Source of the DNA: Candidatus Omnitrophota bacterium | Lineage (GTDB): Bacteria > Omnitrophota > Gorgyraeia > B26-G9 | Direction: 5' to 3' | Assembly (NCBI GenBank): GCA_016213925.1 | Contig: JACQZH010000007.1 | Coordinates: 30,951 to 94,950 of the forward strand | DNA: 64,000 nucleotides | Part shown: piece after piece, positions 6,650-55,875 of the stretch | How positions within the stretch are numbered: the stretch's first letter is position 1 | Layout: every line of letters starts with the position of its first letter | Position numbers and translations under genes: made by a program | Notes under the pieces: generated by a model | Told to the model about the DNA's origin: nothing | The model's input: the letters and a program-made list of their open reading frames with translations, nothing else | Databases searched by the model: none

Positions 6650-9610
6650 TTAATTTAATATAAATCCTTGATTGCCGCGCAAGATAAATCTTTTTACAGC
6701 ATGCCTGGTTTTATCCGCAGTATCTGTTCCGGTTAAAAAAAACGTAAAAATTACGGTGTCTGCCATTTCTTGTGCCTGCGGATTGGTATAAGAAATAATA
6801 TCGTAATTAGGAAACTGAACCGCCGTGTCTTGCGGGGAAAAGGAGTAAGAAAATTTCTCGTTATTGACCTCTAGAATCCCCTCATCCATTATCATCCCCG
6901 GCATAATCACGGTATAATAAACCTTAGCGTGGCGTAAGGGAGTTTTTATTGCGCCCTTTATCCTTAAAATGTCAGTATAATTTATTGAGAATCGCGCGGG
7001 CAAGTTAAGTTCGAGAATGTCATTTGGCGCGGAAGGCTCAACAGCATAAACAAAATATTTTCCGTCTCTAGTGCCGGCAAAATCGCCTTTTTTGTCCTTA
7101 TAACGGCAATTTCCTTCAACAGTATAAACTCCGGGTTCTTGTATTGGTATTTCCGCGCCTTCAGCAGCGGACATTTTTGCCAGGCCTATTTTATTTGTGA
7201 TGCCTTTGAATTCATATTGTTTTCCGCCGGGTGTAGTTATTTTTTTTAAACATTTAACATTAGCGATAGGAGGAAAAATCATTGCTCCGGCGCTTAAAAT
7301 ATCGCCGGTTTCAAAAATCATTCCGGCCAAAGGCGTGCCGGCATCAAAAAGATAATGCTTGCGGCCGTTAATCTCGAAAATCGGTTCAGCTAGAGGCGCG
7401 GATACTCTATTAGCAAAAGAACCTTTTGGGATAACCACGCCCATAGAGGCATAGATTCCATATAAATTAATTCCTTTTTTTAGATCACGATAGACAACAC
7501 CGCCCAAAAATTCATAAATATCCTGCGGCAAATCCCCGTTATAACTGTTGTTGATTTGCTCTCCGGCAAAGTTTCCGCCGCTTTGCCAATACGTGTCTCC
7601 CATAGGATGAGTGTCTTGGCTGACCATAAATCTGGCAGTAAGGCCGGGGCGGATTGCGCTCATATAGGCATAGGAGTGTTTGTCTAAGAATTCAGGATAT
7701 CCTTGCGGCTGGTATCCGTTTGTTGTTGTGGAAAAAGGAGCGATTCCTTTTGTTATTCCCGGGAATAGATTTTCTTTACAGCGCATTGTCAGGATAGGAC
7801 GAATGCCATTGTCTCCGGAGAAAGTATTTGCGATATAGAGAATATCGCCGGAATAATATGGAAAAGGGAACAGGGTACAGCAGGTGTAATTATTAGACAT
7901 AGGATTGTTGACCGTCATGAGTTGCCCTTCATAATTGCTATTATCCCTTGGCCCGATATCAGCGTGTATATGGGTGGAAGGGGACGCGCCATGCACGATG
8001 AGCGGTGAGTTTTTGGGAGCAACAACAGAACCGCTTTTTTGGCTGCCCATCCAAAAATTACCCTGGCTATCCGTATAGAACGCTGTAATTGTGGAAAGAT
8101 ATTCTCCTGGGCAGTCAAAAATCATTTTTTCAAATTTTTCTTTCGGGTAAAAGTACCCGTAACGGTTAGCTGCTCCTTCGATAACAACTTTTTTTATATC
8201 CTGCTTGCTGGAATTTCTATAAAAGGCAATATCTACTTTTACCTTGGCTGGGCAAGGCGGATGGATGATGACCGACGGAGGATATCCATCGCCCACTTCA
8301 AACGGAGTGCCTGGCTTTACGCTGGTGGCAAAAGTTAAGCGGTTCGCAACCCACACTTCGTATGTTCCGCCGCCGGTATATGTATTGCCCCAAACATCAG
8401 AGATCCAGCCGGTTAATTCAATTGAGTATTTGCCTTGCAAGGAAAACTGATAGCCGAACTTATCGGAATTTGAAGAAGCCCCGGTCGTAGATTGGGATTG
8501 AAATTTTTCTGTGCCGAGAATATCTTTTGTCCCGTCAGGTTTTGTGACAACAACCGAAAGCTCGCCGGATTGATAATTTAAAGGAATAGGAGTTTGAAAA
8601 TCCCATTTTGATCCCTGCTCTAGTTTTAGAAGCGGTTTTGCGAACATAGTAGGGAAATCAGGTTCAAGGATATATTTTGTTGTTTCCTGAGGTGTTTTTA
8701 ACGGAGGAAGAATGAATTCAGCAGGGATAATATGCCGGGAATTAAATTGAAAATTATCCGCGTCTTCTTTCGCGACTACTCCTTGAGTGCCATTGCTGAA
8801 ATATTTTGTAAGCAGTGTCCAGATCATCTTTGGCATAACAGGATTGCCGACTTTGATTACCGGAAGGTACGAAGATGTCCTTAGAATTATAGATTGATCC
8901 CAGTCAGAATAAATAGACGATGTTTTAGCGTATAGAGGCAAAAAGTTTACCCGATGAAAATAGCGGTGTTTTTTACAGAGGGCGGTAATTTGAAAGCGGT
9001 AATACCCTTCGGGAAAATCGGTTTTTATAATATCCTGGAACTTAAAATTAGCCTGCAGTTCTTCAGCGTTGATTTTTAAATTTGATTTTGGCGCAAAAGC
9101 ATATTTATAAAATGGCGCAGAATTGCTGTATCCTGAAAACCGGTTTTCAGGGGCTAAAGAATCGATATATTCGACAAATTTTAAATCCTCATATTCTGTC
9201 GCGCTAAAGTCGTAGTTTTCAATGGGCAGTCCCGAGGGGGTTAATACTGTGGAATTATAGTTATTTGTGAATTGATGATAACGGCCTTGTTTATCAAAAA
9301 TTCTTTCCGCGCGTAAAAGGATATAAATGCCGTCAAGCTCCTTGATGACTTCAATGGCCTGCCTGGATTTTACTTGTAAGCGTACCTGTATTTCGATATT
9401 ATCATTAAAATTAAAATCGTTTTTGTTTATCGAGGTTTCAAAGCTTAATTCGCCATCGCCAAGAATTTTTTCCGAAAAATCAAAACAAACGGGATCAGCG
9501 AATAAGAATACAGGAGAGCTAATCAAGGCAAAACAGAGGACAGGAAAAACAAAAACCGTTAGAAAAAAGTTTTTTTTGATAAGCATGGCAATCTTTCTTA
9601 ATTTCCGCAA
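6650..9610 (-). CDS. Large (986 aa) secreted or membrane-anchored protein of unknown function, co-oriented with and abutting the diheme cytochrome c.
   Basis: Long intact ORF, N-terminal TM/signal, no recognisable catalytic motif. A 1-nt gap to the downstream cytochrome gene implies an operon. Confidence 0.55.
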   Translation of the reverse strand: MRKLRKIAMLIKKNFFLTVFVFPVLCFALISSPVFLFADPVCFDFSEKILGDGELSFETSINKNDFNFNDNIEIQVRLQVKSRQAIEVIKELDGIYILLRAERIFDKQGRYHQFTNNYNSTVLTPSGLPIENYDFSATEYEDLKFVEYIDSLAPENRFSGYSNSAPFYKYAFAPKSNLKINAEELQANFKFQDIIKTDFPEGYYRFQITALCKKHRYFHRVNFLPLYAKTSSIYSDWDQSIILRTSSYLPVIKVGNPVMPKMIWTLLTKYFSNGTQGVVAKEDADNFQFNSRHIIPAEFILPPLKTPQETTKYILEPDFPTMFAKPLLKLEQGSKWDFQTPIPLNYQSGELSVVVTKPDGTKDILGTEKFQSQSTTGASSNSDKFGYQFSLQGKYSIELTGWISDVWGNTYTGGGTYEVWVANRLTFATSVKPGTPFEVGDGYPPSVIIHPPCPAKVKVDIAFYRNSSKQDIKKVVIEGAANRYGYFYPKEKFEKMIFDCPGEYLSTITAFYTDSQGNFWMGSQKSGSVVAPKNSPLIVHGASPSTHIHADIGPRDNSNYEGQLMTVNNPMSNNYTCCTLFPFPYYSGDILYIANTFSGDNGIRPILTMRCKENLFPGITKGIAPFSTTTNGYQPQGYPEFLDKHSYAYMSAIRPGLTARFMVSQDTHPMGDTYWQSGGNFAGEQINNSYNGDLPQDIYEFLGGVVYRDLKKGINLYGIYASMGVVIPKGSFANRVSAPLAEPIFEINGRKHYLFDAGTPLAGMIFETGDILSAGAMIFPPIANVKCLKKITTPGGKQYEFKGITNKIGLAKMSAAEGAEIPIQEPGVYTVEGNCRYKDKKGDFAGTRDGKYFVYAVEPSAPNDILELNLPARFSINYTDILRIKGAIKTPLRHAKVYYTVIMPGMIMDEGILEVNNEKFSYSFSPQDTAVQFPNYDIISYTNPQAQEMADTVIFTFFLTGTDTADKTRHAVKRFILRGNQGFILN

Positions 9611-51179: not shown

Positions 51180-51181
51180 AA

Positions 51182-51219
51182 AGAGGCTAGAAGATAACTT
51201 CTAGCCTCTTTGCCTTTTG
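51182..51219 (+). terminator. Rho-independent terminator after the MFS gene.
   Basis: agaggctagaag-ataa-cttctagcctct followed by a T-rich tail. Confidence 0.55.
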
Positions 51220-51426
51220 CCCGTGGGGTGGGAGAAATACGAGCAAAAGGCGGTGAAAACAGAATAAAAACAACTCTGCTTTCACATATTCCCTTATATA
51301 GTTTAGATGCTCAAGCAAGGTAAAAGTTGCAATATTTTAAAACAAAATCGCTAAAAAAGCTAGAAGAATTTTTTTAATGCGGTATAATGTATTTTAAAGT
51401 TTTGCCGTATGAAGGCTGTTTTAAAA

Positions 51427-51553
51427 GCGGAGTTAATTCGTCCCGGCGCTTCGCTTTGCGAAGCAAACGGTCGGGACTCATTATCCCTTGCTTAAACGCC
51501 GGTAAAATACCTGTCGGTATTTCACTCGGCAAGTTGCGGGATTAATTCGCGCA
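51427..51553. repeat. Module B (51427-51483) directly followed by module A' (51483-51553), upstream of def. The module order is swapped relative to the 47962-48171 locus.
   Basis: Sequence identity read directly. Confidence 0.85.
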
Positions 51554-51600
51554 AATCACTTAGTTCGCGTTGCTCTCTAAGTGATGCGCTCATTAAAAGG

Positions 51601-52119
51601 ATGGAAATGGCGGTTAGGAAAATTCTTTCGATTCTGGAAGCTAATGAGCTTTTAAGCACAAAGTCAGCGGCAATAAGGCTGGATGATCCGCAGTTGGATG
51701 AGATAATTACGGATTTAAAGGATACCTTACTGGTTACGCCTAACGGGGTGGGGCTGGCCGCGGTACAAATTGGATATTTTAAAAGGGTATTTGTGTTAAA
51801 CGGGGATTATGTGGAAAAAGATTTGGATAAAAGTTCAATTTTTAAAGGCAGCAAGAATAAAATAATTACGTTTATTAATCCAAAAGTTATTTCCGGCAAG
51901 GGAACTGTGCGCGAGGAAGAGGGGTGTTTAAGCGTTCCGGGCTCATATGTAAGTGTTGAACGGCAAAAACTGGTAAAAGTAAAAGCTTTTAATGAAGCCA
52001 AAGAGCAGTTTTATGAGCGTTTTAGCGGATTAGCGGCAAGGGCAATACAGCAGGAAATCGATCATCTTAACGGTATTTTGATTATTGATTATATACGGAA
52101 GAAAGAGGCAGCCAAATGA
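51601..52119 (+). CDS. def: Peptide deformylase family protein with a non-canonical metal-binding motif (QEIDH in place of HEIDH).
   Basis: GLAAVQIG, EGCLSVPG and AIQQEIDHLNG motifs. Confidence 0.8.
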   Translation: MEMAVRKILSILEANELLSTKSAAIRLDDPQLDEIITDLKDTLLVTPNGVGLAAVQIGYFKRVFVLNGDYVEKDLDKSSIFKGSKNKIITFINPKVISGKGTVREEEGCLSVPGSYVSVERQKLVKVKAFNEAKEQFYERFSGLAARAIQQEIDHLNGILIIDYIRKKEAAK

Positions 52120-52922
52120 ATTTAATGAAAAAAAGATATGATTTTGAAGAGTTGTTTAATTTATATAAGAACAGAATTTACCGTTTAGGGTTGAGCGTTA
52201 GCCGTAACGAAAAAGACGCTGAAGATATCCTGCAGAACACATTTTTAAAAATTATACAGCATATTGAGGCATTTAAAAATAAAGCGCATTTATCCACCTG
52301 GATTTACAAAATAGCTTATAACGAAGCGTTGATGCTTTTACGCAAAAAACGCAGGCATTTGAGTCTTGAGGATTCCATTGATTATCAGGCTAAAGCAATC
52401 CCTTCGGGCCTGCTTGTTAATTGGGCGGCTTTTCCGGATCAGCGGTTATTAGAGGAGGAAATGAAAGCAAGGATTGACCGGGCAATTAAACACATGCCGA
52501 TAAAATACAGAATGCCGTTATTGCTGCAGCGAGTTGAAGGCCAGTCCTTAAAAAGCACCGCGGAAATTTTAGGGCTGAAGGAAAATTCCTTAAAGACAAG
52601 ATTGCACCGGGCGAACATGTTTGTTAAAGCGGAGATGGCGCAGTATTTTGAAGGAAAAAAACAATCCGAGGAAGAGCATCACGATGAGCGTTGCCGCGTT
52701 ATAACGGATTTCATTTATGATTATGCGGAAGGAACGCTTAAAAAAGGGAAGAAAATTGCTTTTGAAAAACACATAAATGACTGCGAACCATGCAAAATAT
52801 TTTTAAATGCTTATCAGCGGGCGATTTGCTTTACCAAGGCATTGTATTGCAGAGATTTACCGGAAGAACTACAGGCAAAAATTGAATCATTTATCATGGA
52901 AAAGAAAAAAATATCAATATAG
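52116..52922 (+). CDS. ECF-type sigma-70 factor with a fused C-terminal zf-HC2-like (anti-sigma-type) Cys/His domain.
   Basis: Sigma region 2 (ILQNTFLKI, WIYKIAYN) and region 4 (LKSTAEILGLKENSLKTRLHRA). The C-terminal H-x3-C-x2-C cluster reads HINDCEPCK ... C. Confidence 0.7.
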   Translation: MNLMKKRYDFEELFNLYKNRIYRLGLSVSRNEKDAEDILQNTFLKIIQHIEAFKNKAHLSTWIYKIAYNEALMLLRKKRRHLSLEDSIDYQAKAIPSGLLVNWAAFPDQRLLEEEMKARIDRAIKHMPIKYRMPLLLQRVEGQSLKSTAEILGLKENSLKTRLHRANMFVKAEMAQYFEGKKQSEEEHHDERCRVITDFIYDYAEGTLKKGKKIAFEKHINDCEPCKIFLNAYQRAICFTKALYCRDLPEELQAKIESFIMEKKKISI

Positions 52923-53061
52923 AGTTGTTTTTTAAGCAGGCATTGCTAGGATAATTAAAAACTTGAACAAAGTAACGTATTGGTATATATTAAAGTTAAT
53001 AATTATTTTTACTTCAGCTGTTTAAAAATTAGTTTGGTTTTACGCCAAAGGAGTGAAACAT

Positions 53062-53742
53062 ATGGACCAACGCAGAAAATTTGTACGGCTTGAAACAACA
53101 GGTAAAGTAATATATTCTCTGAAACCAGGCACAACAGAACGAAAAGAAGCAATCCTGCAGGATATAAGTATTTCCGGCGCAAGGGTAATAAGCGATGAAA
53201 TAATCACAACAGACAGAGAGTTCAGCATTATCCTGCAGATTCCCGGAATTAACCACGGGCTTAGCGGAAAGGCAACAGTCAAGTGGCAAAGAAGAATTAC
53301 GGAGCAAATGTTTGATACCGGCATTGAGTTTGTCCATATGCAGGAGGCAGACAGGAAGGCGCTGGTGAGTTTTGTCAGAGAAAGCGCCGGACGAATTGAT
53401 GATCAGAGAAAATACGTGCGTTGTCCGCTGGAAGCGGAGATTAAATACAAATTGTTAAGTCAAGGGAAAGATGTGACAAAAAATTGTAACTCTATTGATA
53501 TAAGTGTTTCAGGCTTGAAATTGTTTATGAAGGAAAAATTGGAAAAAGGCACTCAAATGCGTATTGAATTTAATCTTCCGGGAGAGAAGAATTTAATTGT
53601 CGCGGATTGCGTTGTGGTTGCCTGGTCAAAATCAGCTCCGGAAGAGATGTTTGTTACAGGCGCGGAATTTATTGATATCTCCGAAGAAAACGTTGAGAAA
53701 ATCAGCAAGTATGTAAAAGCTAAACTTGCGATAATTGAGTAA
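53062..53742 (+). CDS. Tandem PilZ-domain protein (two c-di-GMP-binding PilZ domains). Start at ATG 53062, which has an SD AAAGGAG.
   Basis: QRRKFVRLE ... DISISGARV and DQRKYVRCP ... DISVSGLKL (RxxxR + D-x-S-x-GG patterns). Confidence 0.7.
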   Translation: MDQRRKFVRLETTGKVIYSLKPGTTERKEAILQDISISGARVISDEIITTDREFSIILQIPGINHGLSGKATVKWQRRITEQMFDTGIEFVHMQEADRKALVSFVRESAGRIDDQRKYVRCPLEAEIKYKLLSQGKDVTKNCNSIDISVSGLKLFMKEKLEKGTQMRIEFNLPGEKNLIVADCVVVAWSKSAPEEMFVTGAEFIDISEENVEKISKYVKAKLAIIE

Positions 53743-54977: not shown

Positions 54978-55185
54978 AAAGAAAGGAAAACTCTGGACAT
55001 GGGAATGACAAGCGCGGTAAAAATACTTGTAGTGATTTGGACTCTTGTGGGCGTGGGGCTTTGTTTTTATCTGATAGGTTTTCCTGTTTTTATGAAAAAA
55101 AATATCGCGGTTATAGTTAGCCTGCTTGAGCGCATACTGGAAAATTTGGAAAAAAATAAATAAAATAGAAAAAAGAGATAGGACA

Positions 55186-55875
55186 ATGGAAGAAAAGAGA
55201 AAATTTACCCGTATTCAAGCTCTAAAAGAAGTGCGTTATAAGCACAAGGAGAGTAAAGACCTTATGGCTACTGTTCCGGTAAGAGATCTTAGCCTTATCG
55301 GGATCAGCATATACGCGCAGCGTAAATTTGATAGGGGGGAAAAACTGGAACTGGACATAACATTCCCCGGAGAGTCATTGCCGACGAGAGTAAGCGGAGA
55401 AGTCAGGTGGCAGTTAACCGATGAAGATAATAACTTTATAACCGGAGTGAGGTTTTTTGGCGTTGATGATGACGCGCAAAAACGGCTGACTAATTTTATA
55501 GACAAACATATATCCAGCAATGTTGAGCACAGGACTGCTGTGCGGTGCAAGCTGGAAGTTGAGGTTCAGTACGCTTTGCTTGAGAGCCCGGGAAAAACAT
55601 ATACAGCAAAAGCTGTGGACATAAGTAAGGGCGGAATGCGTATCAGGGTAAAGGAAAGAATTGAAAAAGGGCAATATTTAAAATTAAACCTTAGGCTCCC
55701 GAGTTATACTGATATAATGCAGATTGAAGGCAAAATTGTCTGGCTGCGCCCAGGCGATAGCGTTTACAAACAGGAAGCGGGAATAATTTTTTCGCAAATT
55801 TCCGATTTGGATAAAAAACTGATTTTGAGGTTTGTTGAAAGACAGTGCGAAAAAGAATTAAAAAGGAGCAATTAG
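55186..55875 (+). CDS. Tandem PilZ-domain protein (paralog of 53062). Start set at the internal ATG 55186.
   Basis: EKRKFTRIQ ... DLSLIGISI and EHRTAVRCK ... DISKGGMRI. Confidence 0.7.
   Translation: MEEKRKFTRIQALKEVRYKHKESKDLMATVPVRDLSLIGISIYAQRKFDRGEKLELDITFPGESLPTRVSGEVRWQLTDEDNNFITGVRFFGVDDDAQKRLTNFIDKHISSNVEHRTAVRCKLEVEVQYALLESPGKTYTAKAVDISKGGMRIRVKERIEKGQYLKLNLRLPSYTDIMQIEGKIVWLRPGDSVYKQEAGIIFSQISDLDKKLILRFVERQCEKELKRSN

Follow-up and report, generated by a model that had tools for sequence, protein, structure and literature searches.

The def and sigma genes of the window

The 64,000-nucleotide stretch of Candidatus Omnitrophota contig JACQZH010000007.1 analysed here (the window) carries on its forward strand a peptide deformylase gene (def), directly followed by a gene for an extracytoplasmic function (ECF) sigma factor whose C-terminus holds a zinc-binding anti-sigma (ZAS) domain. 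The coordinates of both genes, their motifs, and the features of the upstream spacer are collected in Table 1; related loci and proteins are referred to by L and P numbers. The def product matches the Pfam Pep_deformylase model (1.3e-39, 135.7 bits) and scores 116.1 bits against TIGR00079, for which the equivalog cutoff is 103.95. Its AlphaFold2 model is confident, with a predicted local distance difference test score (pLDDT) of 93 overall and 96-98 around motif 3, and in Foldseek the model matches solved deformylases with a probability of 1.0 and superposes on type 1B. The fold is type-1B-like, but its C-terminal helix is cut short and ~15 extra residues are inserted after motif 1.

The first-pass annotation of this DNA, made from the letters alone, had described motifs 1 and 2 as intact and the first histidine of motif 3 as replaced by glutamine, and both the motif positions and the alignment bear this out. 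Re-reading the DNA for a histidine codon (CAT or CAC) at this position returned CAG, so the glutamine stands; the protein reads AIQQEIDHLNG here, from the codons CAG CAG GAA ATC GAT CAT. In an alignment to solved deformylases, Gln151 falls on the first histidine of HExxH (E. coli His132), while the catalytic glutamate and the second histidine of the motif are kept. The window protein therefore lacks an HExxH motif in which both histidines are metal ligands. To our knowledge, every solved deformylase has QHExDH at this site, and the first histidine of HExxH is a direct metal ligand in the enzyme.

Two claims on gene boundaries fared less well. The def gene had been started at 51601, where an in-frame ATG does open a longer reading frame (51601-52119, + strand); homologues begin with MAVRKIL and the database copy (P0001) has 170 amino acids, which points to ATG 51607 as the probable start. 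The def stop and the sigma start had been described as overlapping in ATGA, and this overlap is present in the DNA, but the start in use may be the ATG at 52125 (Met4 of the window protein), where most homologues start, which would leave a gap of 5 nt. The genes are tightly packed either way.

Table 1. Features of the def-sigma locus, in window positions
Feature	Position	Strand	Basis
MFS-def spacer, unusually long (MFS, major facilitator superfamily transporter gene)	51180..51606	+	contexts of relatives
Terminator-like hairpin in spacer	51182-51209	+	
Conserved non-coding block in spacer	~51213-51345; core CCGTGGGGTGGGAGA 51221-51235	+	
Peptide deformylase gene def	51607..52119	+	Pfam, NCBIfam, AlphaFold2, Foldseek; start from homologues
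Motif 1, GVGLAAVQ, intact; includes catalytic Gln (E. coli Gln50)	51745..51768	+	motif scan, conservation
Motif 2, EGCLS (in EEGCLSVPG), intact; Cys metal ligand (E. coli Cys90)	51919..51933	+	motif scan, conservation
Motif 3, QEIDH instead of HExxH; Gln151 codon CAG at 52051-52053	52051..52065	+	DNA read, alignment
Ile161 codon, position of E. coli Phe142	52081..52083	+	residue counts, glutamine-type vs histidine-type
ECF sigma factor with fused C-terminal ZAS anti-sigma domain	52116..52922	+	Pfam, NCBIfam, homologues
Sigma70_r2, residues 13-80	52152..52355	+	Pfam
Sigma70_r4_2, residues 119-166	52470..52613	+	Pfam
RsrA-like four-helix anti-sigma domain, residues 191-267	52686..52916	+	Pfam zf-HC2, conservation, RsrA match, AlphaFold2
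ZAS ligands	C193 52692-52694; H219 52770-52772; C223 52782-52784; C226 52791-52793	+	
Further invariant Cys, C245	52848-52850	+	homologue conservation

Glutamine at the first ligand position of motif 3

All 52 of the closest homologues of the window deformylase (49-63% identity), those with names being assigned to Omnitrophica, Omnitrophota or the PVC group, contain QQE[IM]DH, and these are independent cluster representatives drawn from NCBI, JGI, ENA and Logan assemblies. From the 53rd match down, at identities of 43% or less, the motif is QHExDH, with a single exception (P0089) that has the glutamine. When 1.84 billion cluster representatives were searched with a profile, the whole clade of these homologues formed one 50%-identity cluster at 252 bits, the next match scoring 164 bits, and among the 150 nearest 50%-identity representatives the glutamine occurs in only two, the query's own cluster and P0353. 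When the codon was read as DNA in eight sequences (the window and seven further loci of the clade), it was CAG in seven and CAA in one. Throughout the clade the E. coli positions G45, Q50, E88, G89, C90, L91, R102, E133, D135, H136 and G139 are invariant; particular to it are H132Q (100%), L126A (90%), the ~15-residue insertion, which falls past the strand that follows motif 1, and the near-total loss of the C-terminal helix. Judged by this conservation, glutamine at the E. coli 132 position is a fixed, selected state in the clade. It appears to have been fixed once, at the base of the Omnitrophota clade, and to have arisen independently in other lineages.

The gene order around def is likewise shared. 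A block of MFS transporter, def, (PilZ), nitroreductase, (PilZ), peptidyl-prolyl isomerase, HAD hydrolase and FAA hydrolase genes recurs in L001/L002, L003, L004, L005 and L009, with mutS and mutL upstream of it in L004, and the def block is a vertically inherited core region and not a mobile one. Motif scans of the window returned neither a second def nor fmt. The contexts of P0241, the nearest representative with the histidine, and of P0083 are not syntenic with the Omnitrophota locus, and no orthologous sister with the histidine was identified there. The two genes on either side of the nitroreductase gene in the window (53053-53742 and 55126-55875) encode tandem-PilZ-domain proteins, which are cyclic di-GMP receptors; this PilZ-nitroreductase arrangement is kept in Omnitrophota relatives and is what normally lies downstream of def when no sigma gene is present.

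Outside the Omnitrophota clade, JGI metagenomes were scanned with a degenerate DNA pattern for QQE[IM]DHL[ND]G, which yielded 77 stretches. Of these, 51 encode deformylases in which motif 2 accompanies the glutamine (Q-type, as opposed to H-type with the histidine); only about 11 fall within the Omnitrophota clade, and the remainder are 28-44% identical to the window protein. A rough neighbour-joining tree of 240 sequences, built with the variant column masked, contains 14 groups made up entirely of Q-type sequences and requires at least 12 state changes by parsimony. Pairwise identities agree with the tree on this recurrence: L160 is 61% identical to an H-type sequence and 45% to its nearest Q-type sequence, and the largest Q-type group outside Omnitrophota is 55-65% identical to the H-type protein P0101. 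These comparisons place Q-type deformylases in about 10-14 separate lineages.

The surroundings of these genes bear on whether the variant site works. In five contigs (L096, L108, L113, L128 and L149), fmt lies directly downstream of the Q-type def on the same strand, with Formyl_trans_N and Formyl_trans_C confirmed in three of the five, and other Q-type defs were found among yceG, uppP and fabG. Linkage of def to fmt is the classic housekeeping position of deformylase, and the occupation of this slot by Q-type genes is the strongest indirect argument that a Cys/Gln/His site is functional.

The metagenome scan also brought up two kinds of outlier. Minimal deformylases in L091, L111, L117, L120, L126, L129, L130 and L140 end 5-6 residues past motif 3 and combine a Q-type motif 3 with a non-canonical motif 2 (e.g. 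IEGCFSLE, SCFSLKG or MCASIPG); their sequences suggest a distinct, divergent family among whose members the glutamine is common. Open reading frames of ~240-290 amino acids in L105, L114, L133, L134 and L152 contain QQEMDHLDG (QIRQQEMDHLDGFAL) without deformylase motifs; they could represent an unrelated family or have matched by chance.

The residue at the position of E. coli Phe142 co-varies with the type of enzyme. Isoleucine is found there in 97 of 105 Q-type sequences (92%) and in 57 of 331 H-type sequences (17%), among which phenylalanine and tyrosine predominate. As the nearest H-type relatives of the Q-type groups likewise have isoleucine, the swap would have taken place on an isoleucine background and not have been compensated afterwards, and on these counts the exchange of histidine for glutamine appears to be tolerated almost only on the Ile142 background. 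A compensating new ligand was also considered and rejected, since no replacement histidine, cysteine or aspartate was gained or enriched in Q-type relative to H-type sequences.

An ECF sigma factor with its own anti-sigma domain

The gene behind def encodes an ECF sigma factor by several measures: Sigma70_r2 and Sigma70_r4_2 are its only sigma regions, TIGR02937 scores 81.4 bits against a cutoff of 42.9, and its Foldseek matches are ECF sigma factors. Its C-terminal extension is common to at least 120 full-length homologues of ~250-290 amino acids (46-64% identity), the named ones being from Omnitrophota. The zf-HC2 model matches residues 193-226 with 27.3 bits (cutoff 22.2), and the ligand spacing C193-x25-H219-x3-C223-x2-C226 agrees with the ZAS motif C/H-x23-26-H-x3-C-x2-C. 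In 119 full-length homologues, C193, C223, C226 and C245 do not vary, and conservation of H219 is 90% or higher. AlphaFold2 places helices at residues 191-205, 210-219, 224-240 and 250-267 (pLDDT 90-97), in the four-helix arrangement of the class I fold, and the tail has neither a transmembrane helix nor a hydrophobic segment, its last helix being amphipathic.

The best solved match of the tail is the redox-responsive anti-sigma factor RsrA (5frf, E = 1.2e-3). Residues 8-79 of RsrA are covered, including C11, H37, C41 and C44, so that the Cys/His ligands are aligned, and the two proteins share a last helix with DxP-x-[ED]-L-x-A-K. The first-pass annotation had proposed that this sigma factor carries its own anti-sigma element, a proposal that gains support from the complete ZAS motif, invariant or nearly so in 119 homologues, from RsrA as best solved match, and from the lack of any separate anti-sigma gene adjoining the sigma gene in the window, L006, L007 or L008. 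The domain was flagged as zf-HC2 (PF13490) in only 12 of the 120 homologues listed (11 besides the window copy), though all of them have C...HxxxCxxC, and the fused anti-sigma domain is thus largely invisible to routine annotation.

Neighbouring genes of other family members point to thiol chemistry. In L008, the sigma homologue lies inside a cluster of genes for desulfoferrodoxin, ferritin/rubrerythrin, rubredoxin, AhpC, DJ-1, a flavodiiron protein, rubrerythrin, glutaredoxin and a thioredoxin-reductase-like protein. A rhodanese gene lies directly downstream of the sigma homologue in L006 (8848-9192) and L007 (8857-9228), and P0139 (392 amino acids) is a sigma homologue fused to a rhodanese, which may indicate that the signal or regulon of the sigma factor involves persulfide or thiol chemistry. 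The ZAS motif, the RsrA match, the L008 cluster and the rhodanese links together support a single-chain switch for thiol or oxidative stress. In such a protein, which is probably a one-chain thiol-redox switch, the RsrA-like zinc domain would fold back on regions 2 and 4 and keep the sigma factor off RNA polymerase; oxidation of the cysteine ligands would release the zinc, free the sigma factor and turn on thiol and oxidative-stress genes. In L007, a Peptidase_M50 gene (site-2-protease-like, 7330-7962) stands immediately upstream of the ZAS-fused sigma gene, an odd neighbour in that a soluble anti-sigma domain should need no regulated intramembrane proteolysis.

The closest functional parallel is SigR-RsrA of Streptomyces (ECF12), which the window family resembles in the tail and in the thiol and oxidative-stress genes found near its members. 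It differs in that sigma and anti-sigma are one polypeptide, and SigW-like and PRK11922-like models, rather than SigR, come nearest to its sigma core. ZAS extensions fused to the sigma factor have precedents in ECF48, ECF52 and ECF53, where they include membrane helices, and in some members of ECF270 (PMC8999054), so the window sigma factor belongs to a known kind of regulator. ECF48, ECF52 and ECF53 are actinobacterial, with extensions of up to 400 residues that contain transmembrane helices and a predicted activation by proteolysis (PMC8999054), whereas the Omnitrophota protein has a soluble tail of ~80 residues, ends 42 residues past the last ZAS cysteine, and falls outside these groups. 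ECF270, whose soluble ZAS anti-sigma factors are in some cases fused, was compared by description only (PMC8999054).

An alternative reading is that the tail senses a metal or acts positively, like the extensions of CorE-type or ECF41/42-type sigma factors, instead of being an inhibitor released by oxidation. Among ECF sigma factors, C-terminal extensions, Cys-rich or of other kinds, can bring about activation when they bind metal, or can be needed for activity (PMC8999054, PMC7826278), and the fifth invariant cysteine, C245, would suit such a role. CorE-like factors (ECF238) have a short Cys-rich tail of ~20 amino acids, whereas the window tail is ~80 residues long with full ZAS spacing and an RsrA-type helix, and the genes nearby in other loci serve oxidative stress and thiol chemistry rather than metal efflux. 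We consider this alternative unlikely, at about one chance in five.

The pairing with def is a separate matter. A def-sigma operon had been proposed and called unusual; the two genes are indeed tightly packed and, from their arrangement, probably co-transcribed, but the proposal was overstated, as the sigma gene lies downstream of def in only 3 of ~18 related contexts (the window, L103 and L006). In L006, a 129-amino-acid open reading frame separates the two genes, and in the ~15 other contexts of the Omnitrophota clade the sigma gene is not behind def. Elsewhere in the sigma family, the neighbour is a rhodanese gene or the sigma gene is part of an oxidative-stress cluster. From these contexts, the pairing is a lineage-specific, subclade-level insertion of the sigma gene downstream of def and no conserved functional unit, and a functional link of an oxidant-sensitive metalloenzyme with an oxidative-stress regulator is conceivable.

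The spacer between the MFS transporter gene and def is long in the window (421 bp), L006 (336 bp) and L095 (536 bp), and only 0-45 bp in L001 and L003-L005, which have no sigma gene. Its conserved non-coding block recurs in L006 (6789-6915) and in part in L095 (1534-1640), and the exact 15-mer CCGTGGGGTGGGAGA is common to the window and L006, where the flanking proteins are only ~53-63% identical. Possible identities of the block are a small RNA, a leader and a regulatory site; a GTG-initiated reading frame of 14 codons with the same TAA end is possible in the block of both the window and L006. As L095 has no sigma match in the ~1.1 kb downstream of def despite its long spacer and part of the block, and L103 has the sigma gene and lacks the core of the block, the association of spacer and sigma gene is not strict. 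An Rfam scan of 49.5-54.2 kb, which includes the block, returned nothing above chance; a promoter and terminator scan found no more than in shuffled sequence, with no recognisable ECF-type promoter upstream of def or of the sigma gene.

A proposed working Cys/Gln/His deformylase and its alternatives

We read the locus as a working Q-type deformylase beside a self-inhibited redox sigma factor, in a pairing that is lineage-specific and not conserved, and put the probability of this joint reading at roughly 55%. In the proposed enzyme, Cys109, Gln151 and His155 would hold the catalytic metal together with a water, in place of Cys/His/His; Gln151 would serve as the third protein ligand, and the protein would still deformylate nascent peptides. 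The glutamine amide is a harder and weaker donor than imidazole, so the site is expected to bind metals differently: zinc would be bound more weakly, with relatively more tolerance of Fe(II) or Mn(II), and less zinc poisoning is therefore predicted. A changed response to oxidants or to metal-chelating hydroxamate inhibitors would be an alternative consequence of the glutamine ligand. The change itself amounts to a single third-base substitution, from CAY to CAR.

Other metalloenzymes offer precedents. In carbonic anhydrase II, His-to-Gln variants remain active although they bind zinc far less tightly, and the glyoxalase I enzymes of human and E. coli differ both in a Gln/His ligand and in metal preference. 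A natural QEXXH site is found in VMP3 of Volvox carteri, which, as cited in PMC7717551 (Heitzer and Hallmann 2002), is active and prefers copper; this supports the mechanism with Gln151 as ligand. VMP3 is a natural active hydrolase with glutamine for the first histidine of HEXXH and an altered metal preference, though it has an unrelated fold (a secreted eukaryotic zincin, matrix-metalloproteinase-like, with a third histidine ligand), and its copper preference need not apply to the cytoplasmic, cysteine-containing site of a deformylase. Additional support comes from the argument that, in the metalation of mononuclear enzymes including deformylase, ligand identity should accentuate or mute the affinity order Zn > Fe > Mn (PMC11127058).

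Compared with the type 1B enzyme of E. coli, the window deformylase has the same fold, motifs 1 and 2, catalytic glutamate and second histidine; it differs in the glutamine, in alanine for Leu126, in the ~15-residue insertion, in the near absence of the ribosome-docking C-terminal helix and, in the contexts of its clade that were examined, in having no linkage to fmt.

Several observations weigh against the joint reading. Substitutions of His132 in E. coli deformylase reportedly lose both metal and activity (Meinnel et al. 1995), and fmt is not adjacent to def in the window. Redox sensing is not general to ZAS domains. AlphaFold2 leaves it uncertain how the sigma tail is placed against regions 2 and 4, with a predicted template modelling score (pTM) of 0.54, and Foldseek returned only ordinary ECF chains at high root-mean-square deviation and no docked template for an intramolecular arrangement. 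Finally, the E. coli enzyme docks on the ribosome by its C-terminal helix (PMC12690207), most of which is missing in the clade, so that the cellular role could differ.

In the competing view, the Q-type protein has little or no catalytic activity and serves as an accessory paralogue, perhaps a regulator that binds formyl peptides or ribosomes, with a canonical def elsewhere in the genome; the first-pass annotation had raised the possibility of a regulatory or divergent paralog and expected metal binding to be altered or abolished. That the first histidine is a direct metal ligand and that the window def is not next to fmt would both fit with this. Inactive paralogues normally lose several catalytic residues, whereas here all the others are invariant over 49-63% identity, in a gene that sits in a conserved core-genome block and not in a mobile context, and elsewhere Q-type def fills the def-fmt slot in five contigs. 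In addition, none of the 120 matches listed is an H-type sequence with an Omnitrophota name, a weak point, as most entries are nameless. Taken together, the fixed glutamine, the invariance of the other catalytic residues, the core locus and the def-fmt linkage elsewhere do not support an inactive paralogue, to which we give only about a one-in-five chance; an altered metal binding is plausible, and the same conservation and context evidence speaks against its being abolished. Type 3 and accessory deformylases (the inactive copies from S. aureus as well as S. pneumoniae, and the trypanosome deformylases) likewise depart from the canonical motifs (PMC12690207). The substitutions described for them affect motifs I and II, often with several in one protein, while the window protein has perfect motifs I and II with one ligand of motif III changed and, unlike them, looks like a core copy.

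It is improbable that the glutamine was selected mainly for lower sensitivity to natural metal-chelating inhibitors, such as actinonin-like hydroxamates, and not for the choice of metal. Accessory deformylases with a few substitutions near the active site do confer actinonin resistance, natural inhibitors are thought to occur (PMC12690207), and a change of metal ligand would plausibly alter chelator binding. Against this, no inhibitor gene cluster or mobile element lies near def in any context examined, and the glutamine is fixed in the core-locus copy of a whole clade, not in an add-on copy. A sequencing or assembly error, or a pseudogene, has next to no probability and was rejected: a single base separates CAG from CAY, against which stand 52 independent representatives, seven further loci read as DNA with both CAG and CAA, an intact reading frame and a confident fold.

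Extended beyond the window, the working-enzyme reading leads to a broader and more tentative proposal, to which we assign rather less than even odds. QExxH deformylases may form an unrecognised natural class in which glutamine is a true ligand, with many origins by single-base change on the Ile142 background. They would be the only deformylase in whole lineages (this clade and several minimal-genome groups), and would have a different working metal or a different resistance to zinc poisoning, oxidants or hydroxamates. The literature searched contained no description of a QExxH deformylase and no deformylase paper on Omnitrophota. A 2025 survey of deformylase motifs reports HEXXH as conserved in >95% of single-copy genomes, and neither this accessory-deformylase survey nor its supplements mention a QExxH form (PMC12690207).

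The sigma factor is the lesser part of these findings: ECF sigma factors with a built-in regulator gain one more family, spread across Omnitrophota. The main interest is wider than a single gene of the window and lies in an essential enzyme that occurs in nature, repeatedly, in a Cys/Gln/His form. Peptide deformylase is an antibiotic target and among the best-studied mononuclear metalloenzymes, its Cys/His/His site is treated as invariant, and current debates concern its in vivo metal, zinc poisoning and oxidant sensitivity. The Q-type enzymes would provide a ready-made experiment on the first coordination shell, metal choice and robustness of the site, and their dependence on Ile142 would illustrate clearly how a background can permit the swap of a ligand. 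Rules that demand HExxH for an active deformylase would wrongly discard real enzymes in uncultivated lineages.

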